The position numbers and the translations under genes are program-made. From Myxococcota bacterium (GTDB lineage: Bacteria; Myxococcota; XYA12-FULL-58-9; JALHOP01): a stretch of DNA of 64,000 nt. The notes under the pieces are model-generated. The model made no database searches. It was not told where the DNA came from and saw only the letters and a list, made by a program, of their open reading frames with translations. Positions 3,859-63,537 of this stretch are shown here, piece after piece (the stretch's first letter is position 1; each line of letters starts with the position of its first letter). The stretch lies in NCBI GenBank assembly GCA_041288095.1, contig JBGGMJ010000010.1, positions 19,581-83,580 on the forward strand. Reading direction: 5' to 3'.

Positions 3859-3886
3859 ATATCGAGGTGGTCACCCTAGGCGTTGC
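3859..3886 (-). promoter_or_regulatory. Degenerate sigma28-like promoter (GCAA-N16-CTCGATAT)
   Basis: Variant of the motif seen at 51621, 60657 and 62772; -10 box ends ~8 nt before the ATG at 3851 (leaderless geometry). Confidence 0.35.
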
Positions 3887-3926
3887 CTCGGAAGGGGTGC
3901 CAAGGTGGCCTTCGCCGGGGTGACCG

Positions 3927-5528
3927 TCAGGCCTCGTCGTTGTCCACGCGGAAGGTCGAGACCTCGGCCTCGAGGAGCGACGCGATGTCCGCCATCTGAT
4001 TAGCGGCGCGGGTGACCTCCTGTGCGAGCGCGGTCGCGCTGGTCGAGACCGCCGTGATCTCGCCCATGGCCGACGAGACCTGCTCGGAGCTCGAGAGCTG
4101 TTGCTGGGTGATCTCGAAGATCTGCCGCGCCGAGCCAACGGCGCGCTCGACGAGCTCGAACATCTCTTTCGTCGCCGACACCATCGTCTCCATTTCGGAG
4201 ACGCCGTGTTTGGTCGCCTCGGAGCTGTCGCGGCTGGCCGTCAAGGAAGCGCGTGTCGCGTCGCCGATGATGGCGATGGTCTCTTTCACTTCGCGCGTCG
4301 AGCTCATGACGCTCTCGGCGAGGCGGCGCATCTCCTGAGCGACCAGCGAGAAGCCCTTGCCGACGTCGCCGGCGCGCGCGCCTTCGAGCGCGGCATTCAG
4401 CGCCAGCAGGTCCAAGCGATCGGAGATGCTCTCGATGATGTCGATGACCGAGATGATGGCGCGGCTGTGCTCGTAGAGCTCCTGGACGCGTGCGCTCACC
4501 ATGTCGTTGCGATCGGAGATCTCGCGCATGGCGCTGCGGGCCGCCTCCACTGCTTCCGTGGCTCCACGGAGCTGGTCCGACATGCGCTGGCCGAGGCCCG
4601 CGAGATCCTGCGAGCGGCCCGCGATGGCGTGCGCGGTGCTCGTGAGCGCCTCCATCGAGTGCGTCACCTCGTCGATGCTCGCCGTCTGCTCGGAGACGCC
4701 CGACTCCTGCGCTTTCGACGACATGACGATGTCGGCGGCGGCTTCGCTGACGCGGGTGGTTGCGGAGCGGACGCCCCCGACGATCTTGCGCAAGCTGCCG
4801 ACCATGCCGTTCAAGCTGGCCCCGAAGATCGAGAATTCGTCGCGCGTCTCCACATTCGCCTGCACGCGGAGGTTGCCGGCGCTGACCTCGTTCGAGACGC
4901 GCATCAGCGTGTAGAGCGGCCGCACGAGCAGCTGTCCCGCGAGGATCGCGATGGCGGCGCCGATGAGAATGAAGACGATGAAGATGACGACGACGCGCAT
5001 GACCGTGTTGCGCGTTTGCCTGCCGATGGGCGTGACGTCGAGGCCAACATGCAAGGTGCCGGCGTCGACCGGCGAGCTGATGTCGATGACGTCGAAGTCG
5101 GGGATACGGAATTCGGAGACCATGACCTCCGAGTCGTCACCCTGGGGAACGCCGCTGTCGGCGGTGCGGATCAGCGCCTGCACGAGCGGTGAGGGGACGA
5201 GGTCGGGGAACGAGCTGGCGATCGGAGCGCCACGAACGTCGAGGACGACGAAGTAGCGGACGGCCTCGAGATCGGACAGGGCTCGCAAGCGATCGGCGAG
5301 GGCTGCTTGGCGACCGGCGGCGACGAACTCGTTCGCCGTCACCTCGATGGCGCGCGTCAGCGATAGGCCGCGGGTGATGAACTGACGCCGCAGGATGTCG
5401 GCTGCATCCGCGCCGATGACCCAGGCGGTGACGATGCCCAAGCAGACGAGCACGATGGACATGACCGCCGAGATCTTGGGCCCAAGCCCCACGACCTTGC
5501 TCGCAATGCCACTGACGATCGACGTCAT
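3927..5528 (-). CDS. Methyl-accepting chemotaxis protein
   Basis: Two TM segments, HAMP domain, signalling motif [31 protein letters not shown]. Confidence 0.92.
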
Positions 5529-5669
5529 CGGTCGCGAGTATCCTCAAAGTTCGAGCGGAATGCGCGTTTTTTGCCACTATTCATGTCATCGATGGCGGCT
5601 ATTGGGGTCACTACGGATTTACTAAGCAGCGGACCGGTATATCTTCCCCTCCATCAAGGAGGATCGCCC

Positions 5670-6368
5670 ATGTTGACGATTCGCAAAGCAGGCGAGCGCG
5701 GCCATGCCAATCACGGCTGGCTCGACACGTTTCATACCTTTTCCTTCGCTGGATATTACGACCCCAAACACATGGGGTTTCGCGCGCTCCGCGTCATCAA
5801 CGACGACCGCGTCGATGGCGGTGCTGGGTTTCCGACGCACCCGCACAGCGACATGGAGATCATCACGTACATCCTCGACGGCGCGCTGCAACACCGCGAC
5901 TCGATGGGCACGGGATCGGTGATCAAGCGGGGCGACGTGCAGCGCATGAGCGCCGGCACCGGCGTCACCCACAGCGAGTTCAACGCGTCACCTGACCAGC
6001 AGGTGCACCTGCTGCAGATCTGGCTGTTGCCCGAGCGCGAGGATCTCAAGCCTTCCTACGAGGAGAAGCACTTCAGCGAAGATGAGCGCTCCAACGTCCT
6101 CAAGTTGGTCGCTTCGCGTGGCGGCGAGGCCGGTAGCATCCACATCAATCAAGATGTGCGCCTCTACGCGTCGTTGCTCGCCAAGGGAAAGACGGTCGAG
6201 CACACCATCGCCAAAGGCCGGCACGCCTGGTTGCAAGTGGCGCGTGGTGGCTTGCGCGTGAACGATCTGGCGCTCGCGACCGGCGACGGCCTCGCGGTCA
6301 GCTCGGAAGACAAGCTGCAGATCAGCGCGACCGAGGACAGCGAGCTCTTGCTCTTCGACCTCGCCTAG
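5670..6368 (+). CDS. Pirin family protein (YhhW-like)
   Basis: RGHANHGWLDTFHTFSFA, GFPTHPHSDMEI, MSAGTGVTHSE; AAGGAGG RBS before ATG 5670. Confidence 0.93.
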   Translation: MLTIRKAGERGHANHGWLDTFHTFSFAGYYDPKHMGFRALRVINDDRVDGGAGFPTHPHSDMEIITYILDGALQHRDSMGTGSVIKRGDVQRMSAGTGVTHSEFNASPDQQVHLLQIWLLPEREDLKPSYEEKHFSEDERSNVLKLVASRGGEAGSIHINQDVRLYASLLAKGKTVEHTIAKGRHAWLQVARGGLRVNDLALATGDGLAVSSEDKLQISATEDSELLLFDLA

Positions 6369-6394
6369 TGCCGCCTCGAGTGGCGGCCCACTAG

Positions 6395-8619
<2,225 letters not shown>

Positions 8620-8623
<4 letters not shown>

Positions 8624-10755
8624 GTTCGCTTGCCGTAGACCAAGAGCATGAGCGAGCCCTCGATGAGATTGACCTGGGCGGCGCTGATGACGTGGGGGTG
8701 GGTACCGCCGGTGTCGAGCTCGCTGCGCCAGGTTCCGGCGGCTGGGAGTTGGGGCAAGGTGAAGGAGCACGCGGTCGCGTCGGCGTTCATGAGCAGCAAG
8801 AGTGTGGTGCCGGCGACCGTGTGTCCATGCTCATTCACTTCTTCCGTGGACTCGCCCGCGATCAACATGCCGAGAACGCGACATTCCTCGTTGGCCCAAT
8901 CTTCGTCCTTCATCTCGGCGCCGTCGGGGCGCACCCAGGTGACGTCTTTGACGCCCGACTCGACGGTGCGGCCGGTGAAGAAGCTGTGCCTCCGTAGGAC
9001 CGGGTTGCGCCGGCGGAGCTGGAACACGAGCCGCGCGAAGGCCACGAGATCGGCGTTGCTCTTGGCGAGCGACCAGTCGACCCACGAGATGCCGTTGTCC
9101 TGACAGTAGGCGTTGTTGTTGCCGCTCTGGGTGCGGCCCATCTCGTCGCCGGCGACGAGCATAGGCACTCCCTGCGAGAAGGCGAGCGAGGCGAGGAAAT
9201 TGCGCAGCATGCGTTGGCGCACGCGCAGCACCTCGGGCTTGTCGGTCGGACCTTCGACGCCCCAGTTGCGGGACAGGTTGTGGTCGTGGCCGTCCTTGTT
9301 GGCCTCGCCATTCGCCTCGTTGTGCTTCTGCTCGTAGCTGACGAGATCGAGCAGCGTGTAGCCGTCGTGCGCGGTGACGAAGTTGATGCTCGCGGGCGCG
9401 ACGCCGGCGTTGTGGTGATAGATGTCGCTGTTGCCGGAGATGCGCGAGGCGAGCTCGGGGATCTTGCCGGCATCCCCGCGCCAGAAGCTGCGCAGGGCAT
9501 CGCGATAGCGGCCGTTCCACTCGGTCCAGCTCGCTGGGAAGTTACCGACTTGATAGCCGTTCGGCCCCAGGTCCCAGGGCTCGGCGATGAGCTTCACTTG
9601 CGAGAGCACCGGGTCCTGCTGGACCACGGTGAAGAATCTGCTATCGCGGTTGAACTCGACGGGTTCGCGCGCCAAGGCCGGTGCGAGGTCGAAGCGGAAA
9701 CCGTCGACATGCATGTCCGTGACCCAATAGCGCAGGCTGTCGAGCACGAGCTGCAGGCCGCGCGGGTGCCTGGTGTCGACCGTATTGCCGCAGCCGGTGA
9801 AGTCTTCGTTCGAGCGCCACTCGTCGGGCTTGAGCCGGTAGTACTGGAGGTTACCGAAGCCGCGTAGCGACAGAGTCGGGCCGGCCTGGTTGCCTTCACA
9901 GGTGTGGTTGTAGACGACGTCGAGAATCACCTCGATGCCGGCTCGGTGCAGCGCCTTCACCATCGCCTTGAACTCGATCACCTGCGCGCCCAGGCCACTG
10001 CCGGCAAAACGCGAGTCGGGCGCGAAAAAAGCGAGCGTGTTGTAGCCCCAGAAGTTGGTGAGGCCGCGCTCGACGAGCGGCCGTTCGGGCACCATGTGAT
10101 GCACGGGCAAGAGCTCGATGGCGGTGACGCCGAGCGACTTCAGGTGCTCGATGATCGGCGGTGACGAGACGCCGAGATAAGTGCCGCGCAGATGCTCCGG
10201 CACATCGGGGTGCCGCATGGTGAGGCCGCGCACGGAGGCCTCGTAGATGACGGTGTTGCTCCACGGCGTGTGTGGCGGCCGGTCGTCGCCCCATGGGTAG
10301 GTGGTGTCGACGACGATGGCTTTCGGGACGAAACCGGCGCTGTCGCGTTCGTCGAACGAGAGGTCGGCCGTGGGATCGCCAATCTTGTAGCCGTAGACGG
10401 CGTCGTCCCAGCGCAGGCCGCCGCTGACCGCTTTAGCGTACGGGTCGACGAGGAGCTTGTTGTGGTTGAAGCGCTGGCCCGCCGCCGGCTCGTAGGGTCC
10501 GTACGCCCTGTAGCCGTAGAGATGGCCGGGCCGCGCGTCCGGGAGGAACGCTTTCCAGACGTTGCCGGGCCGCTCGCGCGCGAGGTCCACTTGCGCGAAC
10601 GGCTTCGCGTCGTAGGGCTCGCGGTAAAGCTCGAGGACGACGCGGGTCGCCTGCTCGGAGTAGACCGCGAAGTTTACTCCCTCACCCGTCCATGTCGCGC
10701 CCAGGGGATAGGCCGAGCCTGGCCAGATGCGCGGGTTCATCACCAACGACGTCAT
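8620..10755 (-). CDS. glgX: Glycogen debranching enzyme
   Basis: PLGATW.GEGVNFAV, NFWGYN, DVVYNHT, DGFRFDLA, IAEPWD, FVTAHDG, QSGNNNAYCQDN; start is 10755 or 10740. Confidence 0.95.
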
Positions 10756-10796
10756 CGACCACGACACTAAGCACGTTTGTGGGAGCCGACAAAACC

Positions 10797-11861
10797 TTAC
10801 GGTTGCGGCGGGGGCACACGCTCGAGCTCGACGATGGTCGCGAGGCTCGCCATGGTCAGGCTCGAGCGACCGCCAAGGCTCCAAGCGGCGGTTGCGAGAT
10901 CGGGCCGGCCGTAGCCGGCGCGGATAAATCGGGATTGCGCCGCGGCGACCTGATCGAGCTCGCGGCCCGAGGCGATGGCGACCGCGGCGAGCAAGGCGGC
11001 GGTCCGCGGGGGGCGGCCCTCGGCGAAGTAGCGCAAGACCTCGCGTGTTTGCTCCGACGTCTTTCCCGCTTCGGCCGCGGCGGCCGCGACGAGCGCGGCA
11101 TAACGTGGCGGCACGTCCAGCTGGCGGACCTCGCGGAAGATGGTTGCTGCTGCCGGCCTCGCCGAGACCGCGAGCAAGGCAGCGACGTCTCCATCTTGTC
11201 CGCTAGAGCGGAATGCGGCGAACCGCGCGTAGCTGCCCTCGACGTCACGCACCGTCGCGAGCAGGGCCGCCGTCGCCTGAACGGTGCCCGAGCGGCGCAA
11301 GAGATTGACGTAGTCGGCTTGCATCACGGCGCCATCGGCCGGGCGATCGGTGGTCATCAGCGCCAGCGTCGTGGCTTCCGCCGCGGTCACGAACTGCCCA
11401 GGGCGATAGGCGTTGTAGAGCTCGAGGGCCCGCGCATCGTTGGTGGCCGAGCTGAGGAGCACGACATGGTCGACGTCGAGCTTGGCCTCTTCGAGCCGCG
11501 TCGAGCGCTCGTCGATGACCTTGTAGCTGTCGGCATCGATACGCTGGTTGAGCTGGCGCAGGCTCTCGGCGAGCCGGGCCAACGAGGTACGATCGGCCGC
11601 GACCTCTTGTTGGGCATCGACCAGGCTGGTGGAGCCGATCAGCCCCCCATAGGCGTGAGTGGGGTCGAATGAGGGGGGGCCGCCGGCTCCCTGGACGAGC
11701 TTGTCGAGGGCCGCCTCGTCGCGCCGGAGCTCCGCCGCGGCCGCCGCATGAGCCGCCCGAGCTTCGGCGAGCACCTCGCCCGGTGGCGTGGCCGACCCGA
11801 CGCGCTGCTCGATCGCCGTGGCCCGGGCAATTTGTGCGTCAATGGTCTCGAGGCCGAGCAT
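10797..11861 (-). CDS. Hypothetical Ala-rich coiled-coil protein
   Basis: 354-aa ORF with plausible codon usage; preceded by a sigma28-like promoter. Confidence 0.65.
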   Translation of the reverse strand: MLGLETIDAQIARATAIEQRVGSATPPGEVLAEARAAHAAAAAELRRDEAALDKLVQGAGGPPSFDPTHAYGGLIGSTSLVDAQQEVAADRTSLARLAESLRQLNQRIDADSYKVIDERSTRLEEAKLDVDHVVLLSSATNDARALELYNAYRPGQFVTAAEATTLALMTTDRPADGAVMQADYVNLLRRSGTVQATAALLATVRDVEGSYARFAAFRSSGQDGDVAALLAVSARPAAATIFREVRQLDVPPRYAALVAAAAAEAGKTSEQTREVLRYFAEGRPPRTAALLAAVAIASGRELDQVAAAQSRFIRAGYGRPDLATAAWSLGGRSSLTMASLATIVELERVPPPQP

Positions 11862-11880
11862 GGGGGGACTCCGGGGGAGG

Positions 11881-11907
11881 TTATCGGCGGCTCCTTCCTA
11901 GGGTTGT
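11881..11907 (-). promoter_or_regulatory. sigma28-like promoter (ACAA-N15-GCCGATAA)
   Basis: Exact GCCGATAA -10 box about 20 nt upstream of ATG 11861, 15-nt spacer. Confidence 0.55.
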
Positions 11908-11975
11908 GATCACGCATCCGAGTGAAATCGTGGCGATCGCGCGGCGCTCGACCTTTGGGCGCGGCATCGCTAAAG

Positions 11976-12782
11976 ATGGCGCCAGTGAGCGACCAGAAGC
12001 GCAAAGAAGCCATCGCCGAGCGGCTGGCACAGCACCCAGTCTTTCGCAGCCTCCCCCCCGAGGCGGTTGGCGCCTTGGTCGCCGAGGCAACGCTTTTCTA
12101 CCTGAACGCGGGGGAAGCGCTCTACGAGGCCAATTCGTCGGCCAAGCACGTCTTCGCGGTGCTCGAAGGCGCCCTGCAGATCGAATACCCGAAGCCCGGC
12201 GAGAACCGCGGCCTGGTCGTCGCCATGTTGAGCGCCCCGAGCTTCCTCGGGGAATGCCAGGTCATCCACGGCCGGCCATGGAGCGGTACCGGCATCGCCA
12301 TCGTACCGGTGCTTGCCGTCGGCATCGGTGCGCGACTGCTCGAGCGGACGATGATGACCTATCCGGCGCTCGGCATCGCCCTCTATCGGGAGGTCACGCA
12401 CCGCTTCCTGAACGCGATCAACTCGCGCAAGGAAGCGCCGGTTCGCTCGGTCGAAGAGCAACTCGCCCGCTTCATGGCGGGGAGCCTCGCGGCGATGGAA
12501 GGCGTCGTCCTGACCCGTCCCGAGGACGCCGCCGAGGGGGAGTCCGAAGACATGCTCCCCTACAGTCAGGCTACGCTCGGTCGCGCCACCGGTTTGCGGC
12601 GCGAAACCATCAACCGCATCCTCGCTCGCTGGGAGAAGGACGGGGTACTAAAAGCTGGCGCTCGCGGCGTTTCGGCCATCGACCGTGCGCGCCTCGAAGG
12701 CATTGCTGGCGCTGCCGGAGTCAGTCTCCTCCAGAGACTCGACAGCGACATCGGACCGGAGCTTACGCTCGGGCGTGAGTGA
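11976..12782 (+). CDS. Crp/Fnr family transcriptional regulator
   Basis: cNMP-binding barrel (HPVFRSL, GEALY, FLGE) plus HTH SQATLGRATGLRRETINRIL. Confidence 0.88.
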   Translation: MAPVSDQKRKEAIAERLAQHPVFRSLPPEAVGALVAEATLFYLNAGEALYEANSSAKHVFAVLEGALQIEYPKPGENRGLVVAMLSAPSFLGECQVIHGRPWSGTGIAIVPVLAVGIGARLLERTMMTYPALGIALYREVTHRFLNAINSRKEAPVRSVEEQLARFMAGSLAAMEGVVLTRPEDAAEGESEDMLPYSQATLGRATGLRRETINRILARWEKDGVLKAGARGVSAIDRARLEGIAGAAGVSLLQRLDSDIGPELTLGRE

Positions 12783-13400
12783 GTGCACCAGGCCGTTTTC
12801 GTCCTCGTGACCTTCGCTGACCTGCGAGACTTCCTCGTTGCCGCGCTCGCGGAGCTCGGCCAAGGCACGGAAGATCGAGCGGCGCGACAGCCCCAGCATC
12901 GAAGCCAAGATGTCGATCGACGGGGTCGGCGTCTCGAGGACCCGCAGCAGGCGCGAGAGGCGCTCTACCAAGCTCATGCTGTCGAGCTCGATCCAGCGGA
13001 TGGTGGTGGCGTAGCGGCGAGCCAGGTCGTCGGTCAGCCAGTTGCGCAGCTCCGAGGAGCCTTCCCATTCGCGGATGAACTCTTCACGTGAGAGCGTCAT
13101 CAAGCGGGACGGGGTGACCAGGCGGACGGTGTCGCGAGCCGAGCAATTCGCCAGGACGTCGCGGTCGCCGAGGATGGCCGGGGCGCGAACCAGCAAGGTG
13201 GTGCGGCTAGCACTGCCTTCGCCGACGTAAGCGCGGGCGTAGCCCGAGGCGAGGATGTACACGCCGTCGCTTGGATCGCCTGCGTGGTAAAGAGCTTGTT
13301 CGGCACGGGCGCGCAGGGTGCAACGCTCTCCCATCGCTTCTTCGAGCTGGGTCGTCGGGGTCGAAACCGCTTCGCGCAACGTGGTGAGTAGACTGCTCAT
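12648..13400 (-). CDS. Crp/Fnr family transcriptional regulator (degenerate)
   Basis: LYHAGDPSDGVYILASG cNMP-like domain, HTH ILASMLGLSRRSIFRAL; 3' end overlaps the convergent Crp gene. Confidence 0.75.
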   Translation of the reverse strand: MSSLLTTLREAVSTPTTQLEEAMGERCTLRARAEQALYHAGDPSDGVYILASGYARAYVGEGSASRTTLLVRAPAILGDRDVLANCSARDTVRLVTPSRLMTLSREEFIREWEGSSELRNWLTDDLARRYATTIRWIELDSMSLVERLSRLLRVLETPTPSIDILASMLGLSRRSIFRALAELRERGNEEVSQVSEGHEDENGLVHSLTPERKLRSDVAVESLEETDSGSASNAFEARTVDGRNAASASF

Positions 13401-13552
13401 GGCATGTTCTCCATCAGGTCATTGCTCACGGCGCAACGCTATGCCCCGCCACTGAGCGTGTGCATGGCCAAATCGCCTTGCACGCATTCTGGGTATCGGT
13501 TGCGATTGCCACGCGGACGCGAAAGACACAGTGACACATCCAGCACGAACGA

Positions 13553-13568
13553 AGTGAGTCTGATCACA
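13553..13568. promoter_or_regulatory. CRP-like operator AGTGA-N6-TCACA
   Basis: One mismatch to TGTGA-N6-TCACA; lies in the intergenic region upstream of the minus-strand Crp gene. Confidence 0.4.
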
Positions 13569-13599
13569 CGTCATGGTCTAAGTGGCTGATTTTGTTGGA

Positions 13600-15147
13600 T
13601 CAGGCCGGGGACGGCTGCGCATCACCACTCGGCCGGCGCCCGTTCTTGAGGGCGTCGCGTACGATCTCGGAGATCCCACGCATCGGAACCCAGACCCAAT
13701 CCGGACGATGGGTGAGCTCGTAGCGTAGCTCATAAAACGTTTTTTCGATTTCGAACAGCCGGATCAGGCGCTCGATGGTGGCTCCATCCGGTGGCAGAGT
13801 GGCACTCGTTGTCTGCAAATAGCCCTGCATGAAGGCGTCGCGCAGGTGCCGTTCCCAGTTGCTGGCCCGGTAAAGGGCTGAATCCCAAGGCATTTGCTCG
13901 GAGCAGGCGATGGCAGCCATGGCTGCGGCGTAGGCAAAGGAGCGCAACATGCCCGCGACGTCGCGCAACGGGCTGTGCAGGGCGCGGCGCTCGGCTAGCG
14001 GGCGCGTGGGCTCCCCCTCGAAGTCGATGATGTAGAGGCGACCTTCCGGGTCTCGCAGCACTTGGCCCAGGTGATAGTCGCCGTGATGGCGGATGGTGAG
14101 GCCGAGCTCGGCGTGGCTCGCTTGCTCGAGCGTGGCGATGTCGCGCAGGACGACCTCGTGATGCTCGAGGTCCCGCAGGCCCTGAGCGGTGATCTGGTCG
14201 CGTGCGCCGGTGGCGCCGCCGAAGTCCGTCCGTTTTAGAAGAGCGATGCTGTCGCTCACTTCATGACGGATGACGCTCGCCCAGCGCACTACGTCGTCTT
14301 GCGTGGCGCGGGAGGGTGTGAAGCCGTGCTTGTCGTTGGCCTGCGCGAGCTTCTCGTGGAGCTCGCGCGTCACCTGGCCCAAGCTTCTGGCTTCATCGAC
14401 GAAGGGCTCGCCGCCGTCGCGAAGCTCGGGCAGGCGGCTCATCACGTAGCCCCACAGATCGCGCGCGTCAGGCACCAGCCGTTGCGCCATGAGCAGCGCC
14501 GTCGGACCGCGGTCGCCATCGAGAGTAGCGCTGCCAACGAGCGCCGGGACGAAAGGCGCCGCGCGCCGCGTGAGATACGAGCCGATCTCGATGTCTGGGT
14601 TCTCACCGGCGGTGAGCTTGCGGAACAATTTCACGATCAGCGCGTTGCCATAGACGATCGAGGTGTTGCTCTGCTCGACATCGACGACCCGTGATGGAGT
14701 CGTCGGGTCGATGTCGATGGCGGTGTACTTGACGAAGCGAAGCTGGGTGCCGTCGGTGGTGAAGCGGCGCCCGTCGACGAGGTACTTGAGCAGGGCTTCG
14801 CGGAACACCGGGCAGTGCGGGGCGTCGACGAGCGACAGCTCACCGGTGCCGGTCTTCACCTTGGCGACGATCAGCGCTTCGTCGACGGCTTGATCGGTGA
14901 TCGACAGCGGGACGAGGTAGGACGCTGTAGCGGACCCATTGCATTCGCGGACGTCGACTTGCGCGAGCACCGCGTCGCAGCTCGGGAAGAGCGGGACGAC
15001 CTCGGCGAGGACGGCGCTATCGGGCTCATAACGGCCCGAGAACCAGCGCTGTCGTCTCAAGAACTCCCCGAGCGGCGCGCCTTCGAGCTGCTTGAGCGTA
15101 TCGGTGGCGAGAGCGGTGGCCGCGGTCGCTTCGATCGTCGTGGCCAT
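13600..15147 (-). CDS. mak: Maltokinase (Mak/Pep2)
   Basis: QRWFSG, EQSNTS, KLFRK, HGDYHLGQVL, IDFEGEP, SPLRDVAGMLRSF; directly downstream of treS. Confidence 0.88.
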   Translation of the reverse strand: MATTIEATAATALATDTLKQLEGAPLGEFLRRQRWFSGRYEPDSAVLAEVVPLFPSCDAVLAQVDVRECNGSATASYLVPLSITDQAVDEALIVAKVKTGTGELSLVDAPHCPVFREALLKYLVDGRRFTTDGTQLRFVKYTAIDIDPTTPSRVVDVEQSNTSIVYGNALIVKLFRKLTAGENPDIEIGSYLTRRAAPFVPALVGSATLDGDRGPTALLMAQRLVPDARDLWGYVMSRLPELRDGGEPFVDEARSLGQVTRELHEKLAQANDKHGFTPSRATQDDVVRWASVIRHEVSDSIALLKRTDFGGATGARDQITAQGLRDLEHHEVVLRDIATLEQASHAELGLTIRHHGDYHLGQVLRDPEGRLYIIDFEGEPTRPLAERRALHSPLRDVAGMLRSFAYAAAMAAIACSEQMPWDSALYRASNWERHLRDAFMQGYLQTTSATLPPDGATIERLIRLFEIEKTFYELRYELTHRPDWVWVPMRGISEIVRDALKNGRRPSGDAQPSPA

Positions 15148-15174
15148 CAGCTCTCCCAAGAGCTAGCTCCAAAG

Positions 15175-37541: not shown

Positions 37542-37544
37542 GCC

Positions 37545-38186: not shown

Positions 38187-38197
38187 GGTTGTGAACA

Positions 38198-38827: not shown

Positions 38828-38884
38828 AGTTAGCGCTAGAACGTAGGCACGAATCACAAAGTAGTACTGCCCCTAAGGTGACGG

Positions 38885-39517: not shown

Positions 39518-39523
39518 GACTCC

Positions 39524-40096: not shown

Positions 40097-40105
40097 AGGT
40101 CGATC

Positions 40106-43944: not shown

Positions 43945-44064
43945 GGGGCGCCCGAGACCACGGTGGCGACGGCCCTGTCAAACGGCTCACGTTGCGCGCA
44001 TGACACGGCGTCGGGAAACCCCTGCTGGAAGCGCACGATAACTGCGGCGTTCCAGGAGAGCTCC

Positions 44065-45080: not shown

Positions 45081-45413
45081 CTACGGCTCGACTTCCATCT
45101 TGGTCGCGTTCTCGAACACCGCGTATTTGATGGTCGCGGGAATGCCGCGCTTGGTGACGACCCGCAGGTCGCCCTGCAGCACGTACTGTCCGCCGATCTG
45201 GAAGTCGCTGGGGCCGAGGTAGACCTTGTCGAAGGTCCGATCACCCACGGTGAGCGTCTTGTTGAGCACGAGGTACATTCCAGAGGGCGGCGCGTTACCG
45301 CCCGGGCCGAACAGCGACAAACGTTGGACGATACCCTCGAGCACCATACGGACCGGCGGGGTCTCGATACGACCGCGAATCGCGTCCGGCTGGCCAACCT
45401 TCAAACTAGTCAT
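45081..45413 (-). CDS. Small hypothetical beta-rich protein
   Basis: Clean ORF, GGAGA RBS before ATG 45413 (MTSLKVG), sigma28-like motif upstream. Confidence 0.65.
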   Translation of the reverse strand: MTSLKVGQPDAIRGRIETPPVRMVLEGIVQRLSLFGPGGNAPPSGMYLVLNKTLTVGDRTFDKVYLGPSDFQIGGQYVLQGDLRVVTKRGIPATIKYAVFENATKMEVEP

Positions 45414-45454: not shown

Positions 45455-45481
45455 TTATCGAGCGCTGCCGGTCGTTGGTGC
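45455..45481 (-). promoter_or_regulatory. Variant sigma28-like promoter (GCAC-N15-CTCGATAA)
   Basis: Same spacing as the exact copies. Confidence 0.4.
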
Positions 45482-51618: not shown

Positions 51619-51620
51619 GC

Positions 51621-51803: not shown

Positions 51804-52196
51804 ATGGGTGACACTGGAACTGGAACTGTTACGGGCTCGCGTCCTCCAATTCCGACTCTGCCGCAGACCGGGAACGGCGAGGCCGCACGCAGACTACAAG
51901 CGAGACCGCAGGCGGGCGACCCTTCGCGCCAGCTCAGCTCGGGCGAGCTATCCCCGGCGGATCGCCAGCGCTTGAACGAAGCCATGAGACAAATGGGTAC
52001 GTCTGGTAGCCAGGGCGAAGAGAGTCTGCGGCAGGGTATCGCTCCCGGCAACCGGCGAAACCTGCGAAACCAGCGCCTGCAGCGGAATCCGCGAGCCGAC
52101 GGTGAGAACGGCGCGGCTGGCATTCAAAACCAGATCCGCACCGATCAAGGTCAGCCCGGCGCTCCCGTCGACCCGCGCGTGCGCGGGCCTCGCTAA
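51804..52196 (+). CDS. Hypothetical low-complexity G/Q/R/N-rich protein
   Basis: 130-aa ORF with T/G/P-rich N-terminus, downstream of the sigma28-like promoter. Confidence 0.55.
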   Translation: MGDTGTGTVTGSRPPIPTLPQTGNGEAARRLQARPQAGDPSRQLSSGELSPADRQRLNEAMRQMGTSGSQGEESLRQGIAPGNRRNLRNQRLQRNPRADGENGAAGIQNQIRTDQGQPGAPVDPRVRGPR

Positions 52197-52218
52197 GTCG
52201 CGCTAGTCGCGCGCCGGT

Positions 52219-57982: not shown

Positions 57983-58030
57983 GGCGCTTATTTTTAGCGC
58001 TGGGCCGCGTATGACGTACGATAGCGCCCG

Positions 58031-60178
58031 ATGCCCGTAGGTCTCGAGAGCTTGGGACTTCGCATGGGGCTGCGCGAGCGGCTCATCGCCGTGCTGCTCT
58101 TCGCGGTGCTCGGCAGCGGTGTGGTCGTCGGCGTCGCCACGCAGTTCCTCCTGCGCGGCCGCATCATCAAAGAGCTCACCGGCCGCACGGACATCATCAA
58201 CCAAGCACTCGACGCATCGGTCGACGTCGCTCGCGCGGTGAAGGGTCGTGACGCCGCCGCCGCTCAGGCCTTTCTCGAAAAGCTGCTCTCGGCGGAGCCC
58301 GAGCTGGTCTACGCCATCGTCTTCGTCGGTGAGCCCGAGAACGCTCGCGCCGTCGCTTGGGCGAGCACGACGCCGATCGTCGAGGGCCTCGACATCACGC
58401 GCGCCGAGAATCGCGCCGCGCTACTCAAGCGCGTGTTTGCTTCAGCGGACGCCGACGCCGGTTCGGACATCGTGCATCGCGCCGTCACCTTGCACCCGCA
58501 GGCGCTGCCGACGGAAGACCCGTCCGCTGGTCCACCCGACATCGACGCGCTCATGGGGTTTCAGGGCGCGGCGCTCTTCGGCATGACTCCGGACGTCGAG
58601 CTCAGCCGGTTCCGCACCGTCATTCTCTACGTCACCATCACCTCGGGCCTCATCGTCATCATCATCTTGTGGTGGTTCTTCAGTCGCGTCTCCGGGCGCA
58701 TCGAGCTCTTGCTCGGCTACGCCGGTCGCATCGCCGACGGCGATCTCACCCACAAGATTGATGACCAATCCGGTGACGAGTTCGGCCAGCTCGCCAACGC
58801 GCTGACCTCGATCACGAAGGGCCTTGGTTACACCATCGCCCAGGTGCGCACGACGTCGCTCGAGATGGACTCCGTGTCGAACCGCGTGCGCGACGCTTCG
58901 CGCCAGATCGCCACCGACGCCGGCACGCAAGCGATGTCCGTCCGCCAAACCGGAACCGCGATGAGCAATATGTCGCGCGCCTCGCTCACCTTCGAAACGC
59001 AGATCAACGACGTGTCTCGTGCCGCCGAGCTTTCATCCGACCGCCTGCGTGATATCAGCGGCGCCGTCGATCGCATCACCAGCACGGTGCATCAGGTCGC
59101 TACCGCGGTCGATCAGACGCGCGAGCATCTCGAGAACAACGTGGCGCGCCTCTCCGAGGTCGATCGTGCCGTCGATCGCTTGAACAGCGCGGCGGAAGGC
59201 ACCGCCAACGCGACCACGCAGATCACCAACAGCATCGGCAGTGTCGAACGCAGCACGGACGAGGCGTTGCAGATGTCGCGAGACACGTCGCGCAAGGCCG
59301 AGAGCGGCGTCTCCGCGGTGAAGGATACTCTCGAGGGTATCCGGCGTATACGCTCGTTCACCAACGATACCGTCGAGTCCGTGCGCTTCTTGTCGCAGAA
59401 GGTCGCCTCGATCGAGCGCATCCTCGATGTCATCGACGACATCGCCAACCAAACGAAGCTGCTCTCGCTCAATGCGTCCATCATCGCGGCCGGCGCCGGC
59501 GAGCACGGACGCGGCTTCCTCGTGGTCGCCGAAGAGATCAAAGCGCTCGCCAGCAAGACCGCTGGATCGACCCGTGAGATCTCGGGCGTCATCACCGAGG
59601 TGCTCAAGGTCTCGGGCAACGTCATCGACGTCGCCGAGCGCGGAGTGCGCATCGTCGACGAAGGCGTCGACCGCAGCGAACATGCCGACCAAGTCTTGTC
59701 ATCGATCTTGGACGCCTCGACGCGCACCGGCGCCTTGGTGCGCACCATCGCCGCCGCCATGACCGAGCAAGCGCGCAGCGCGCTCCAGGTGAACCAGGCG
59801 ATGCAGGACGTGCACTCGATCGCCGTGCGCGTACGCGGCATCGTCAGCTCACAAAAGACGGAGTCGAGCGCGCTCGAGAACTCGATGCGTCAGATGCGCG
59901 CCCTCATGGAGCGCTCGCTCGCCACCGCCAAGGAACAAGCGGTGCAGGTCACCGAGGCCATCGAGGCCATCGGCAGCATCTTCCAGCAGATCCAGCTGGT
60001 CTCGACGACCAACCAAGAACAGGCGCGCAGCCGCGGCGAGGTCGCCAAGGCCTTCGAAGTGCTCGAGGGTCTCTCCGAGCGCCACCGCGATAGCGCACGG
60101 CAGCTCGCCACGGCGGTCGAGCAAGCCACGGCGCAGACCATCGCGCTCACGAGCGCCATCAAGGTCTTCCGCGTCTAA
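58031..60178 (+). CDS. Methyl-accepting chemotaxis protein
   Basis: Two TM segments, HAMP, QTKLLSLNASIIAAGAGEHGRGFLVVAEEIKALA. Confidence 0.93.
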   Translation: MPVGLESLGLRMGLRERLIAVLLFAVLGSGVVVGVATQFLLRGRIIKELTGRTDIINQALDASVDVARAVKGRDAAAAQAFLEKLLSAEPELVYAIVFVGEPENARAVAWASTTPIVEGLDITRAENRAALLKRVFASADADAGSDIVHRAVTLHPQALPTEDPSAGPPDIDALMGFQGAALFGMTPDVELSRFRTVILYVTITSGLIVIIILWWFFSRVSGRIELLLGYAGRIADGDLTHKIDDQSGDEFGQLANALTSITKGLGYTIAQVRTTSLEMDSVSNRVRDASRQIATDAGTQAMSVRQTGTAMSNMSRASLTFETQINDVSRAAELSSDRLRDISGAVDRITSTVHQVATAVDQTREHLENNVARLSEVDRAVDRLNSAAEGTANATTQITNSIGSVERSTDEALQMSRDTSRKAESGVSAVKDTLEGIRRIRSFTNDTVESVRFLSQKVASIERILDVIDDIANQTKLLSLNASIIAAGAGEHGRGFLVVAEEIKALASKTAGSTREISGVITEVLKVSGNVIDVAERGVRIVDEGVDRSEHADQVLSSILDASTRTGALVRTIAAAMTEQARSALQVNQAMQDVHSIAVRVRGIVSSQKTESSALENSMRQMRALMERSLATAKEQAVQVTEAIEAIGSIFQQIQLVSTTNQEQARSRGEVAKAFEVLEGLSERHRDSARQLATAVEQATAQTIALTSAIKVFRV

Positions 60179-60196
60179 GCGCGCCTGCGCGGCACC

Positions 60197-60240
60197 AAAA
60201 AAGAAAAAGGCCGAGCCAACAATGGGGTTGTGGCTCGGCC
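60197..60240 (-). terminator. Rho-independent terminator
   Basis: Stem GGCCGAGCCA/TGGCTCGGCC with an adjacent A-tract (U-tract on the minus strand). Confidence 0.7.
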
Positions 60241-60277
60241 GTCTGAGGGCTTTTTGACTAAACGATAGAACGTTCGG

Positions 60278-60553
60278 TCAGGCAGGACTGTGTTTGATCG
60301 TATACTTCAAGAAGTCTTCGCACATGGTCAGGTAACGCTGGTCGCCGGTCTCGGCGAAGGTTCCGTAAAACTGAATCGAGTGTTGCAGGCTTTGCGAGAG
60401 GCGCATGGCGCCGCCGCCGCCGCGGTTGTGGCCGAGACGATGCTCGAAGGTCTGAGCCAAGCTCGAGAACCAACGCACACCGCGCCGATGTTCGGGGGTA
60501 AGCGGTTTGCACACGTGGTATCGCGAAGAGGACGTCTGGGCTTGCTCTTTCAT
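60278..60553 (-). CDS. Small hypothetical protein (~91 aa)
   Basis: Flanked by a sigma28-like promoter, a GAGG RBS and a terminator. Confidence 0.55.
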   Translation of the reverse strand: MKEQAQTSSSRYHVCKPLTPEHRRGVRWFSSLAQTFEHRLGHNRGGGGAMRLSQSLQHSIQFYGTFAETGDQRYLTMCEDFLKYTIKHSPA

Positions 60554-60630
60554 CGAACCCAACCTCGCTGTGACGCCCCTGGTTTCGCTCCCCCGAGGTA
60601 AACCAAGCGCTGAGCGTCTTACGTGTTGAG

Positions 60631-60657
60631 TTATCGGCAGGCCGAGGCGGGTGTTGC
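60631..60657 (-). promoter_or_regulatory. sigma28-like promoter (GCAA-N15-GCCGATAA)
   Basis: Exact motif and spacing. Confidence 0.6.
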
Positions 60658-60791
60658 GCGGATATAGTCGAGAAAGTACGTCGACGTACGTAGGCTATGG
60701 CATTGAAAATGCAGAAGAAACCGGAGGGTCAGCCCGGAGACGGAGGGGCAGAGGGACCGAGACGATCGCGGGCAAGCGATGATCGACGCGC

Positions 60792-61388
60792 CTACTGGTT
60801 CCTGCTCTTCATGATGTCCGCGAGCACCCTGAGCGCCTGCGCCGTCGCCGCGCCGAGAGCGCGGGCACGCTGGGTCGCTGGATGCTTACCCTCGGGATCG
60901 AGCTTCACGATGAACTCGAGGTCGTCGAGCGCCGCGTCGAAGTTCGCCTTCTGCAAGAGCAGATCGGCGCGATTGACGCGCGCCTGGATGTTGTCCTTGT
61001 CGAGCTCGATGGCGACGTTGTAGGCGCGCATCGCCTTCTCAGGCTCGTCGAGCATCTGCAAGCACGCGCCCCACATCGCCTGGAAGTACGAGTTCTCCGG
61101 CTTCATGGTGACGAGGTTTGCGAAGATGCGCGCCGCGTCCATGAAGCGGCCGTTCTGGTAGAAGTCGTAGGCGTATTTCGCGAAGCCGACCGCGTCTTCG
61201 TCGGTGAACCCGAGCAGCTCGGCCGAGCCGATCTCGCCGCTCAAGAACCTGAAGACATTTTGCTCGGTGAAGCTCGACTCGATGGTCGCCTGGTTGATCG
61301 CGACCGTCGGTGTGCCGACGCCGATGTCTGGATCGGGGACGACGATGTCGGAAGACTTCTTCGGCTTGCCTTCGTTTGCCACCAGCAT
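60792..61388 (-). CDS. TPR protein, SycD/LcrH-like T3SS class II chaperone
   Basis: AYDFYQNGRFMDAARIF..L....P....F...GACLQ......A...Y..A: three-TPR pattern typical of translocator chaperones. Confidence 0.75.
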   Translation of the reverse strand: MLVANEGKPKKSSDIVVPDPDIGVGTPTVAINQATIESSFTEQNVFRFLSGEIGSAELLGFTDEDAVGFAKYAYDFYQNGRFMDAARIFANLVTMKPENSYFQAMWGACLQMLDEPEKAMRAYNVAIELDKDNIQARVNRADLLLQKANFDAALDDLEFIVKLDPEGKHPATQRARALGAATAQALRVLADIMKSRNQ

Positions 61389-61447
61389 GCGCTCCTCGCC
61401 GTATCCTACCCTGGATGTGGGTGTGGCGCCACCAGCAGGGGAAGGGA

Positions 61448-61472
61448 TGCCCGCGGCAAGGCGCCGCGGGCA
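61448..61472. other. Intergenic perfect 10-bp hairpin without U-tract
   Basis: TGCCCGCGGC-AAGGC-GCCGCGGGCA between the translocator-like gene and the chaperone gene. Confidence 0.5.
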
Positions 61473-61479
61473 CTAGCCT

Positions 61480-62688
61480 TTAGCGAATATTACGAACGGC
61501 GGTCATCGCCATTTCGTGGAGCGTCTTACTCACGTTCGAGGTCATATCCATGATCATCTTCCAGTTCTGGATGAGGATCTGGACCTCTTGCATGAGGACC
61601 GTGGTGCTCTTCGAGCCACCCGAGAGCGCACCTTCGACGCCGTTCACCATCTCACCGAACTGCTTGACCGCCATACCGGCTGCCATGCCGACCGGATTGA
61701 AGATGCCGCCGATGCTCAAGATGCCGCCGACCATCTCCGCGGCGTCGCGGCGCTGCTGCATGCGGCGCTCACGCTGCTCTTGGATGACGACCTCTTCCAT
61801 CTTCTCGCGCAGCTTGTCCTCGTACTTATCGGACATGTACGCCATGAAGTAGTAGATGAGGCTCTCGATCGAGATGCCGGGGCTGTTGATGAGCGACAGC
61901 ATGTTGTAGTCGCCGAAGTTCGAGGCGACCGAGCGCATCTGCTTGCGCAGCTGGAACTGGATGCCGTCGGTTGCACCGAGCATCGCCGAGCCCATCGACA
62001 AGAGACCGAGGCCGCCGCCCATGCCGCGCATGGTGCCCATGCCGGGGATATTGCCGAGGCCGCCGAGCGCATTGCGGGCCGCCATGTCGCCGCCCGGCAC
62101 GGTGCCGTTCGCCGCAGCGGACCGGAGAGCGCCGACCGCGTCGCGTGACGCCGGCTCCAAGCGCATCGTGTGAATGGCGAAGCCTTGCGGCTGACCCTGC
62201 GCGTTGACGGTCGGCACGACGCCGTGCTCGCGACGGAGCTCCTCGTCGACCTTGCGCGCGTCGCCGCCGTGGCGCTGCTGGAGCTCGCTGCGGAGCTGCG
62301 AGAACGGAACCTGCTGACCCGCCGCGTTGATGAACTGCGTGTCGTTGTGGATGTTGACGAAGTTAGGGTCGGCGCTTGTCTGTCCGTTGCGGACGATACG
62401 CGGGGCTTCGGTGACAGACGCGGCCGGTGGCTCGGTGACGGTGCCGGTCGGCGCGGCGCTCGCGGCGCGACCTTGTCGATCGCGTGTGACGAGGCGTGGA
62501 GCCATCTGGTCGGTCGGGCTCGCGGTACCGAACATGCGACTGAGGACCGAGTTGCTCTGCGCGTTGTAGTCCGTCGTACCGTTGGCGTGCTGCAACGAGT
62601 TCGCGACGATCTGCTGTACGGCAGGATCGAGCCCCTGAATCTGGCGCTGCTGGTCGGGAGTCAATCCTGCGATATTGATACCAGTCAT
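61480..62688 (-). CDS. T3SS translocator/needle-like secreted protein
   Basis: Low-complexity N-half, coiled coil, hydrophobic MVGGILSIGGIFNPVGMAAGMAV, C-terminus SNVSKTLHEMAMTAVRNIR; AGAGGA RBS. Confidence 0.55.
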   Translation of the reverse strand: MTGINIAGLTPDQQRQIQGLDPAVQQIVANSLQHANGTTDYNAQSNSVLSRMFGTASPTDQMAPRLVTRDRQGRAASAAPTGTVTEPPAASVTEAPRIVRNGQTSADPNFVNIHNDTQFINAAGQQVPFSQLRSELQQRHGGDARKVDEELRREHGVVPTVNAQGQPQGFAIHTMRLEPASRDAVGALRSAAANGTVPGGDMAARNALGGLGNIPGMGTMRGMGGGLGLLSMGSAMLGATDGIQFQLRKQMRSVASNFGDYNMLSLINSPGISIESLIYYFMAYMSDKYEDKLREKMEEVVIQEQRERRMQQRRDAAEMVGGILSIGGIFNPVGMAAGMAVKQFGEMVNGVEGALSGGSKSTTVLMQEVQILIQNWKMIMDMTSNVSKTLHEMAMTAVRNIR

Positions 62689-62745
62689 CGGATCCTCTAC
62701 GACGAGACCGCAACACACCCAGTGTCGCGATCAGTGTTACTCAGT

Positions 62746-62772
62746 TTATCGGCGGCGCGTATCTCGAGTTGC
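62746..62772 (-). promoter_or_regulatory. sigma28-like promoter (GCAA-N15-GCCGATAA)
   Basis: Exact motif and spacing, ~58 nt upstream of ATG 62688. Confidence 0.6.
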
Positions 62773-62829
62773 TTACTTTTCCATACGTTTGGTCACTGCG
62801 TCGTGGTTAGTGACGCGAGCGCCACGCGA

Positions 62830-63453
62830 TCAGAAGACAGAGTTCCAGAGCGCGATGCCGCCCCCGACCACGAGGACAGCACCAGTGCCGATCAACGCGA
62901 TCGGCACCCAGGCCGGGGCTGTCGCGAAGATGACGCCAGTGGCGATCGCGCCGCCGACAGTGGCCATCGTTAGCCCGCCTGCGACCGCTGCGGACCCGCC
63001 AATCGCCTTGGCTCGCATGGCGAGCTCGTTGCGCATCCCCCATTCGGTCGTGCTCATCACCCAGTTCGCCGGGAGGTTCGGCATCGGAGCGCCACCCGGC
63101 GGAGCTGCCTGCGGATTGGCCGCCGCTTCGGCGAGGCGAAGGCGCGCGTTCAAGTACTCGCGGCCACCCGGCACGCTGCCCACTTGGAGCTGCCGTCCGC
63201 CAATGCTGCCTGGTTGTGTCAGGCCGCGGAGGATCTGCACCTGCTCCTGCGGGGAGGAAGCGCGACCGAGGACGCGCTCGAAGTTGGTGCTGTTGACTCT
63301 TCGGTCGGGAGCTTCACCGAACTCGCGCGAGGAAATGTAGAGCTCGGGCTCATCGAGCGGATCACGCTCGACCAGCATGCCCGCGACCTCACGGCCCGCT
63401 TCCGTGTTCGGAAGACTCAACCCCTGGCGGATTTGCTCAGCTGTAAGCGCCAT
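62830..63453 (-). CDS. Hypothetical protein with C-terminal Gly/Ala-rich hydrophobic hairpin
   Basis: AAGGAG RBS; no signal peptide; C-terminal ~55 aa hydrophobic. Confidence 0.7.
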   Translation of the reverse strand: MALTAEQIRQGLSLPNTEAGREVAGMLVERDPLDEPELYISSREFGEAPDRRVNSTNFERVLGRASSPQEQVQILRGLTQPGSIGGRQLQVGSVPGGREYLNARLRLAEAAANPQAAPPGGAPMPNLPANWVMSTTEWGMRNELAMRAKAIGGSAAVAGGLTMATVGGAIATGVIFATAPAWVPIALIGTGAVLVVGGGIALWNSVF

Positions 63454-63510
63454 CGCGGAAACTCCTTCACCGAGAGACACAGAGCGCAGTTATCGCTCTT
63501 CGTGTCTTCA

Positions 63511-63537
63511 GTATCGGCGGGAGAGAACGCGTGGTGC
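63511..63537 (-). promoter_or_regulatory. Variant sigma28-like promoter (GCAC-N15-GCCGATAC)
   Basis: One mismatch in each box, same spacing. Confidence 0.5.

Follow-up and report, generated by a model that had tools for sequence, protein, structure and literature searches.

In plant-pathogen type III systems, the alternative sigma factor HrpL recognizes the hrp box, which marks type III genes together with scattered effectors and has been used as a genome-wide barcode for effector discovery. In Bdellovibrio bacteriovorus, a sigma-28-like box, TTAAG-N16-CCGATA, precedes 92 of 140 attack-phase promoters, and a global regulatory role has been proposed for FliA (Karunker et al. 2013, PMC3627812). 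In Chlamydia trachomatis, chromatin immunoprecipitation followed by sequencing found sigma-28 bound at two promoters, hctB and tsp (PMC12282069). Myxococcales systems have been placed at the base of the non-flagellar type III tree, in a paper whose available text contains no occurrence of the word “sigma” (Abby and Rocha 2012, PMC3459982). Here, we compare with these systems a promoter motif, consisting of a GCAAC −35 box and a sigma-28-type −10 box, that recurs in a stretch of 64,000 nucleotides from a Myxococcota genome (hereafter the window, G000:C10:19581-83580). Throughout, G000 denotes the source genome, G001 through G003 denote genomes of the same genus (congeners), and C-numbers denote contigs.

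The motif is the genome's dominant detectable promoter signal, and the promoter class, its size, its orientation, its conservation, and the properties of its products are demonstrated by computation. Probably, these promoters all belong to a single alternative sigma factor within the sigma-28 (FliA) family, and comparative evidence makes sigB', a FliA-like paralogue, the likely reader. The explanation that fits the data best overall, and which we regard as reasonably probable, is that sigB' reads these promoters, that a neighboring protein, p159, acts as a checkpoint, and that the genes so driven encode candidate type III substrates.

A promoter class with a GCAAC −35 box

An earlier note on this DNA had reported three exact copies of GCAA-N15-GCCGATAA in the window, and these are present as described (Table 1), against a mean of 0.00 in dinucleotide shuffles (0 of 100 gave any). 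Two of them share the longer string GCGCAACAC-N10-CTGCCGATAAC, as can be read directly in the matched strings. Using a weight matrix built on the genome-wide motif sites (threshold 17 bits, spacers 15 and 16), we recovered the four near-copies that the note had listed; the eighth copy, which the note itself had called weak, falls below the threshold, so that seven of eight pass. All eight copies are intergenic and face a gene start 5-160 nucleotides away. The gene calls come from our own crude caller, which also defines “intergenic”, and the intergenic share of the genome is 7.7%.

Across the genome (5.85 Mb on 212 contigs, 66% G+C, approximately 90% complete), the two half-sites are held at a strict distance. 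Counts of GCAA-N(x)-NCCGATA reach 88 at x = 15 (83 intergenic) and 37 at x = 16 (32 intergenic), compared with 2, 4, 3, and 7 at x = 11 through 14 and 1, 6, and 3 at x = 17 through 19. Since GCAA is followed by C in 117 of these 125 sites, the true −35 box is GCAAC, and GCAAC-N15/16-CCGATA has 117 copies in the genome versus 3.0 at control spacings. At −35 the motif also accepts ACAAC, GAAAC, and GCACC, and at −10 it accepts NCGATA and CCGAAA; among the motif sites, the −35 box was not seen to begin with T or to end with G. The −10 logo reads G-C-C-G-A-T-A-(A/C), and the GCCGATAA box stands 15 nucleotides from the −35 box, as in sigma-28 promoters. By contrast, the −35 box is not the canonical TAAA(G): one site has a TAAA-type −35 box among the matches listed of 246 CCGATAA sites. 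(Short tandem arrays of GCCGAT(A/G)(A/G)C at G000:C31:~13970-14120 and C43:~7070-7180 yield several non-promoter CCGATAA matches.) The note's reading of a sigma-28-type promoter with an altered −35 box therefore stands: the −10 box and spacing are canonical, GCAAC replaces TAAAG, and the full consensus is (c)GCAAC-N15/16-CCGATA(A/C).

At 17 bits or more, the weight matrix finds 331 sites, against 59 summed over four control spacers. These comprise 224 sites with spacer 15 and 107 with spacer 16, which share one common logo, and we therefore see no sign of two readers there. Most sites are intergenic (289 of 331), and 264 of 331 have a same-strand start codon within 300 nucleotides, at a median of 46 nucleotides from the −10 box. 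Where orientation is informative, 153 sites point toward a gene start and 12 away (p = 2.6e-32). An unbiased count of 5-mer/gap/5-mer pairs over 2988 upstream regions places motif members in all of the top 60 ranks. The 264 units downstream amount to approximately 8.6% of the roughly 3056 units in the genome and hold approximately 353 genes, 200 units being single-gene. Altogether, the genome counts and the intergenic and orientation enrichment bear out the earlier proposal that the motif can serve as a genome-wide barcode.

To follow the motif in relatives, we scanned the 3 congeners, 18 further genomes of the order, and 9 remoter members of the phylum. The exact motif occurs 121, 143, and 91 times in the congeners (2-3 for a reversed-pattern control) and 1-60 times per genome in the rest of the order, and among the nine remoter genomes only G025 is clearly enriched (45 versus 4). 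All three sites of window 60.2-63.6 kb lie at orthologous positions in all three congeners, with their boxes unchanged and their spacers diverged; the variant boxes GCACC/GCCGATAC of the 63511 site are among those kept.

The candidate reader and its operon

The earlier note had suggested looking for a FliA/WhiG homologue, and a profile search found two such sigma factors in G000, sigA' (166 bits on TIGR02479) and sigB' (163.7 bits). FliA/WhiG is the best-scoring family for sigB', whose best solved relatives are FliA proteins (E 6e-27). The sigB' gene (C92:35188-36072, 294 amino acids) is the last of an operon ordered p111, p185, tetratricopeptide repeat (TPR) protein, p159, sigB', which is syntenic in seven genomes (G000, G002, G015, G005, G025, G029, and G030).

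The distribution of sigB' largely follows that of the motif. Orthologues with at least 63% identity occur in 19 of 21 relatives of the genus and order and in G025. No sigB' was found in G022, G023, G024, G026, and G027, and G024, G026, and G027 hold 1-2 copies of the motif. G005 has 60 sites and no sigB', an absence due to a contig break that cuts the operon, its TPR gene lying 670 nucleotides from the contig end. The operon itself carries the motif, with sites before or inside it in six of the seven genomes (G029, G030, G005, G025, G002, and G000). In G029, a 23.1-bit site lies 71 nucleotides before the p185 homologue in a genome with only 5 exact sites, and in G030, a 20.5-bit site lies 82 nucleotides before it in a genome with only 6. 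The G029 operon is also located approximately 17 kb from SctV, part of the type III export core described below.

The promoter-reading residues point the same way. In Pseudomonas sigma-28, S224 and Q228 contact −35 bases, and R97, D66, and Y76 serve the −10 region, according to the available text of PMC12784957. sigB' retains the −10-reading residues, and its −35 helix reads SKSWTSRLH versus SESRVSQLH in FliA, which places W at 225 and R at 228. This helix is invariant in 24 of 24 aligned sigB' homologues. Both sigA' and the flagellar paralogue of the congeners, sigC', retain S..Q at the −35-reading positions. sigB' would be a case of a sigma-28 paralogue re-aimed through its −35-reading helix with the −10 box kept, which would let three sigma-28 paralogues coexist in one genus with separate promoter sets.

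The 159-amino-acid protein p159, encoded beside sigB', shows a disordered N-terminus that varies between homologues and a helical C-terminus that is conserved; it matches no Pfam family at E ≤ 0.05 and carries no FlgM signature. A complex model of sigB' 66-294 with p159 scores 0.85, and the best of 3 controls scores 0.00. Of 80 solved complexes, 58 attain this mark, as do 2 of 110 mismatched pairs; these counts hold only roughly because our own alignments were used. The model runs share at least 64% of their contacts, and the predicted local distance difference test (pLDDT) score of the partner is at least 65. The modeled interface joins p159 69-157 to sigB' 154-202, 226-233, and 285-293, i.e., to domain 3, the linker, and domain 4. 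Binding of p159 to sigB' is as such model-supported only. The nearest named ESM Atlas cluster of p159 is YopR/PscH at 0.77, a sub-threshold lead that we did not adopt.

Upstream in the operon, p185 (G000:C92:37386-37943; L013:11386-11943, minus strand) combines a disordered N-terminus with a glycine-rich middle and a long C-terminal helix ending in ...KHDTAKNSINNVR, and its conservation reaches from this genus as far as G029 and G030. Its AlphaFold model (mean pLDDT 55.7) is confident only for helix 127-184, and a profile of 6 homologues matches no PDB sequence at E ≤ 10. The C-terminus may resemble needle proteins, and the order p111-p185-TPR-p159 may resemble that of yscE-F-G-H. Should p185 be a needle or rod subunit, such systems might possess needles after all. 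We discarded as a promoter the 18.0-bit site at C92:37895-37920, which falls within the conserved p185 reading frame.

Products of the regulon and alternative explanations

We examined the first genes of 206 of the 264 units; regions were picked by target number and then by list order, which leaves 58 omitted and is not a random sample. A Pfam family was found for 21 of 105 in one set (E ≤ 1e-6) and for 34 of 101 in the other (E ≤ 1e-8), leaving 151 of 206 with none, several of them longer than 600 amino acids. The note's impression, formed in the window, that downstream products are mostly orphans thus holds genome-wide, and the motif singles out approximately 190 proteins without a known family. 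Among the annotated members are 15 peptidases, two serpins, a Fic protein, two Ser/Thr kinases, a Kelch protein, a non-specific nuclease, a lipase, a polyhydroxybutyrate depolymerase, and GH3, SLT, and beta-lactamase-fold proteins. None of the 206 belongs to a flagellar or chemotaxis family, contrary to what an ordinary flagellar regulon would contain, and none is a type III structural protein. Paralogue families are few, 201 of 264 first genes having no paralogue in the genome. One first gene (G000:C190:4574-17047; L030:1-12474, minus strand) encodes a 4157-amino-acid midasin-like protein with AAA_5 (dynein-related) and VWA domains.

The scarcity of Sec signals and the composition of the N-termini, both of which the note had pointed out in the window, extend to the regulon as a whole. 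By a home-made heuristic, a simple hydrophobic-core test, 15 of the 264 first gene products have Sec-like N-termini, compared with 1122 of 4630 others (p = 5e-15). Among proteins without a signal or membrane segment, the S/T/P/Q/N share of residues 2-26 is 0.310 versus 0.238 (p = 9e-20), with fewer Leu and acidic residues, and the shift over whole proteins is smaller (0.246 versus 0.217). In a set of selected enzyme and effector-like families (S8, M4, lipase, nuclease, serpin, Fic, Kelch, and others), which are mostly families that are usually exported, 21 of 21 members have no signal-like N-terminus, and most of them start with long S/T/P/A/Q-rich low-complexity stretches. We take these N-terminal features to resemble type III signals, and the absence of Sec signals together with the S/T/P/Q/N-rich N-termini makes the products candidate type III substrates.

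A non-flagellar export core that could serve such substrates is present. SctV, SctU, SctR, SctS, SctT, and SctQ are all found and are of the non-flagellar type. The single FHIPEP protein is SctV (TIGR01399 850.8 against a cut-off of 692; FlhA 694.6 against 772), SctR and SctQ exceed their cut-offs, and SctU and SctT are best matches below theirs. FHIPEP, FliP, and FlhB each occur in single copy, and SctQ, a FliO-like gene, SctR, SctS, and SctT form a run with FliJ- and FliK-like genes nearby. Most full-length matches of SctV are 74-98% identical and come from uncultured bins titled Myxococcota, Deltaproteobacteria, or Bdellovibrionales. The genome has ten LcrH/SycD-like chaperone matches, three of which are linked to the motif (Table 1).

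These results support part of what the earlier note had proposed. Its idea that a variant sigma-28 coordinates a non-flagellar type III apparatus is upheld in that such a sigma factor and the export core are both present, and it fails in that the apparatus lies mostly outside the motif. Its link between a chaperone/translocator locus and orphan genes is upheld in three LcrH/SycD-like loci, and the regulon of approximately 264 units reaches far beyond any one such locus. In the mechanism that we propose, p159 would hold sigB' inactive in the manner of FlgM until the non-flagellar type III machine is competent, whereupon p159 would be removed, perhaps through export. The freed sigB' would then transcribe its own operon and the regulon, and these units would encode lineage-specific proteins and hydrolases as candidate substrates. 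The export of p159 and of the regulon products is suggested by analogy with known systems, and for the products in particular we consider export by the type III system plausible, at close to an even chance.

Several observations weigh against this explanation. Regarding the apparatus, no site of at least 13 bits occurs in C92:1-14000, which holds SctQRST; a 19.4-bit site 382 nucleotides before SctV recurs in all three congeners and in 0 of 36 loci of other relatives; and no intergenic site accompanies the strong LcrH-like chaperones of C181 and C203. The regulon also includes plainly cytoplasmic enzymes (a pantoate transferase, UvrC, an aminotransferase, and a homoserine dehydrogenase). Regarding the reader, sigB' falls below the TIGR02479 cut-off of 189.6 for FliA/WhiG membership, as does sigA'. 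The site at the sigB' operon is weak in G000 (15.5 bits, and likewise 15.5 in G002), the G015 operon has no site of at least 12 bits, and a modest motif excess occurs without sigB' in G022 (14 versus 3), G023 (9 versus 1), and G016 (12 versus 5). Motif counts peak in the sigA'-carrying genomes G000 through G003 and G005, and sigA' could therefore contribute. Moreover, complexes of sigma-28 with FlgM have been solved, so the score of the p159 model could partly reflect likeness to them, and p185, with no PDB sequence match and a model confident for a single C-terminal helix, is only a putative needle subunit. Lastly, three soil RNA-library runs contained 5-7% of the words, and contigs 90-95% alike cover window 60203-60584 and 61402-62026, but this material consists of contigs from relatives only, which cannot show 5' ends, strand, or level and thus gives no evidence on transcription starts. 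The first of these two stretches spans the small orphan reading frame at 60278-60562 (a weak observation).

The alternative that fares best against these data is that the regulon is a general life-phase programme (stationary, attack-like, or differentiation), of the kind proposed for Bdellovibrio FliA, with mostly cytoplasmic products that would not be type III substrates; the sigma factor may still be sigB'. We give it somewhat less than an even chance. A share of 8.6% of all units is large for an effector set, metabolic and housekeeping-type enzymes belong to the regulon along with a PilZ protein and AAA ATPases, and the apparatus operons are mostly without the motif. There is also precedent, as the 92 Bdellovibrio attack-phase promoters with a sigma-28-like box include those of proteases and unknowns in the available text of PMC3627812. 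Against such a programme stand the four-fold depletion of Sec-like signals, an N-terminal S/T/P/Q/N excess (+0.072) greater than that of the whole proteins (+0.029), the 21 signal-less members with their mostly low-complexity N-terminal extensions, and the linkage of the motif to the sigma gene and to three LcrH-like chaperone loci.

Reading of the motif by sigA', alone or jointly with sigB', is improbable in our estimate. The gene (C127:21759-22571) is followed by a FlgM gene (PF04316 31.3 bits, cut-off 25), which adjoins sigA' and not sigB', and the profile scores show this to be a real sigma-28/FlgM pair, FlgM being the classic exported anti-sigma factor. The highest motif counts (91-143, and 60) also occur in genomes with sigA' orthologues of 59-92% identity. 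However, sigA' orthologues with at least 40% identity occur in only 6 of 30 relatives, whereas enrichment of the motif extends over most of the order (e.g., 42 sites in G015 and 40 in G020). The protein keeps the canonical −35 readers but has lost W88, P90, S92, and R98, residues near the −10 readers whose roles we partly presume. Its own promoter looks sigma-54-type (TGGCAC-N5-TTGCT, L012, ~30-50 nucleotides before the ATG at 9759), and no GCAAC motif lies near sigA'. The unbiased 5-mer pair count in upstream regions yielded no second promoter class that could belong to sigA', and no target promoter of the sigA'-FlgM pair was identified in G000.

The third paralogue, sigC', is found in the congeners and not in G000, within a flagellar cluster of approximately 35 kb beside flhA. 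G000 seems to have lost the flagellum that G001 through G003 keep in this one cluster. On G000 contig C79 (junction C79:26361-26390), orthologues of G002:C2:124.8-128.4 kb are joined to the flank beyond fliD, so that approximately 23.6 kb comprising flhA, sigC' (fliA), the rod genes, flgKL, fliC, and fliD is skipped relative to the congeners. As the contig is contiguous across the junction, the flagellar FliA is absent by deletion and not through an assembly gap, and no other flagellar core gene was found in the 90%-complete assembly. An initial reading of an organism without any flagellum was revised, given that the congeners carry the cluster. Their flagellin promoter has the same geometry with another −35 box: fliC of G002 and G003 is preceded by a conserved CCTCAAGGTT-N10/11-(A/G)CGATGACTA, i.e., TCAAG-N16-CGATGA. 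The 40-kb flagellar region of G002 contains one strong GCAAC site (24.9 bits), located before a non-flagellar orphan that G000 has kept. That the motif would be an ordinary flagellar FliA (sigC') regulon, expanded as in Bdellovibrio, is accordingly very improbable despite the shared −10 box and spacing, the three flagellated congeners with FliA beside flhA, and this one strong site, given that all 331 sites persist in G000 after the deletion of sigC' and the late flagellar genes, that the flagellin promoter uses TCAAG, that G015 has 42 sites with one FHIPEP gene and no sigC' type whereas G024, with the flagellar type, has 1, and that the examined first genes include no flagellar or chemotaxis family.

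Within the window, the regulon genes differ from their surroundings in the same way as in the genome at large. Six of the seven first genes have no Pfam family at E ≤ 1e-3, as the note had anticipated, and a Pfam family is present in 42 of 49 other genes versus 1 of 7 regulon genes. The N-termini that the note gave (MTGINIAG, MGDTGTGTVTG, MTSLKVGQP, and MRIGPGP) were correctly read. The 402-amino-acid orphan is a candidate cargo of the adjoining chaperone-like protein; its nearest ESM Atlas matches, a cluster in which T3SS_needle_F makes up 10% (0.87) and an effector family of Chlamydiota (0.83), are sub-threshold leads only and were set aside.

Table 1. Promoter sites, downstream genes, and motif-linked LcrH/SycD-like loci (window coordinates unless a contig is named; bits are weight-matrix scores for sites and profile scores for proteins)
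Feature	Position	Strand	Bits	Remarks
Promoter site TTTTTTGC-GCAAC-N14-GCCGATAA	51621..51647	+	24.9	exact copy; intergenic; next plus-strand reading frame starts at 51804
130-amino-acid orphan, MGDTGTGTVTG...	51804..52196	+		0 Pfam, 0 NCBIfam; missed by our gene caller
Promoter site, strongest of the window	60631..60657	-	26.1	exact copy; boxes kept, spacer diverged in G001-G003
Small orphan, 66-94 amino acids by start choice	60278..60562	-		downstream of 60631 site; no family
Promoter site	62746..62772	-	24.3	exact copy; conserved in 3 congeners
402-amino-acid orphan, MTGINIAGLTPDQQRQ...	61480..62688	-		leads two-gene unit with chaperone-like gene; no family
TPR protein, nearest LcrH/SycD class II type III chaperones (motif-linked)	60792..61388	-	82.4	behind 402-amino-acid orphan; TIGR02552, E 2.3e-23, cut-off 104.8 not reached; TPR Pfam families
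LcrH-like protein (motif-linked)	C41:3732-4220		76.5	followed by a 23.0-bit site and an orphan
TPR protein of sigB' operon (motif-linked, LcrH-like)				weaker match
Promoter site, variant GCACC-N14-GCCGATAC	63511..63537	-	21.7	matrix match 63512-63537; variant boxes retained in 3 congeners
207-amino-acid orphan	62830..63453	-		downstream of 63511 site; no family
Promoter site ACAAC-N14-GCCGATAA	11881..11907	-	20.6	matrix match 11882-11907
354-amino-acid orphan	10797..11861	-		downstream of 11881 site; no family
Promoter site GCAAC...TCGATA	3859..3886	-	18.9	spacer 16; matrix match 3860-3886
Flavin amine oxidase, MRIGPGP...	2088..3851	-		sole annotated one of the window's seven first genes
Promoter site GCACC...TCGATAA	45455..45481	-	17.0	matrix match 45456-45481
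110-amino-acid orphan, MTSLKVGQP...	45081..45413	-		downstream of 45455 site; no family
Weak candidate site GAAAC-N15-ACGATAA	44015..44041	+	16.4	matrix match 44015-44040; 24 nucleotides before ATG 44065 (ChrR-cupin-like gene, then GreA)

Other parts of the window deserve a brief description. A glycogen/trehalose cluster at 6395-16869 (minus strand) comprises GlgB, a CBM48 alpha-amylase-family glycosidase, a maltokinase-cap protein, and a protein of the alpha-amylase/trehalose-synthase type, and the motif-driven 354-amino-acid orphan is wedged between the glycosidase at 8620-10755 and a divergent Crp-like regulator at 11976-12782. Methyl-accepting chemotaxis proteins at 3927-5528 (minus strand) and 58064-60178 (plus strand), neither with the motif, are retained despite the deletion of flagellar genes. 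Two MotA/ExbB-type and four ExbD-type genes with a 67-amino-acid reading frame at 36873-40576 (plus strand) form an unusually large proton-channel set. At 24855-27094 (minus strand), a histidine-specific methyltransferase (Methyltransf_33) overlaps a DinB/FGE-sulfatase protein, a pair that we take to resemble EgtD-EgtB of ergothioneine synthesis.

Comparison with known systems

The promoter class described here is sharp enough for the whole regulon to be listed by sequence, in a lineage known only from metagenome bins. If its products are type III substrates, the list would amount to a catalogue of effectors, open to testing, for a type III system that branched early; if most of them are exported, no larger type III effector set would be known, and it could be read in DNA through a near-perfect promoter barcode. 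The candidate checkpoint p159 would, if real, be a concrete case of secretion-coupled control outside the flagellum and would bear on how injectisomes inherited flagellar regulatory logic. The furthest-reaching version of this explanation holds that Myxococcota, at the origin of the non-flagellar type III system from the flagellum, kept a duplicated FliA as a type III late-gene sigma factor together with a new exported anti-sigma factor, p159, and that in this uncultured order it drives 260-300 promoters, mostly of effectors and enzymes exported by way of their S/T/P/Q/N-rich N-termini; we consider that version rather doubtful.

HrpL is an ECF (extracytoplasmic function) sigma factor with a different box and a regulon several-fold smaller than the present one, and it also drives the apparatus operons. 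Here, in contrast, the box is mostly missing before the apparatus operons.

The remaining comparisons draw on the available text of the papers cited. As in the classical FliA/FlgM systems of E. coli, Salmonella, and Pseudomonas (PMC12784957), we find the GCCGATAA −10 box, the 15-nucleotide spacing, and the −10-reading residues, as well as a small partner encoded next door and modeled onto sigma domains 3-4, which would fit the logic of late substrates after completion of the apparatus. The present case departs from classical FliA in that the −35 box is not TAAA(G), position 228 carries R and not Q, the targets are non-flagellar, and p159 has no FlgM signature. With Bdellovibrio FliA (PMC3627812) it shares a five-base −35 box, N16, CCGATA, and a large non-flagellar regulon with proteases, surface proteins, and unknowns. 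Bdellovibrio uses TTAAG and a single flagellar FliA with flagellar and chemotaxis targets, whereas here the box is GCAAC, the candidate sigma factor is a separate paralogue in a needle-like operon, the flagellar genes lie outside the regulon (and are deleted in G000), and the promoters are about twice as many. As in Chlamydia trachomatis (PMC12282069), where it serves late genes, a sigma-28 occurs in a bacterium that has a non-flagellar type III system, with approximately 290 promoters here versus two.

As in the early-branching “Myxo” systems of Abby and Rocha 2012 (PMC3459982), the type III core here comes with flagellum-like leftovers, FliO-, FliJ-, and FliK-like genes lying beside SctQRST; a linked sigma-28 paralogue and its regulon are not described in the available text of that paper. 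Searches of the open literature, made partly at the level of titles and outside subscription papers, returned no paper tying FliA/sigma-28 to a Myxococcota type III system. Relative to these systems, the novelty lies in a dedicated sigma-28 paralogue whose −35 head has been re-aimed and which is set in a needle-like operon with a modeled partner and associated with approximately 264 mostly unknown, signal-less units. In this genus, the sigB' class occurs alongside a flagellar FliA with another box.

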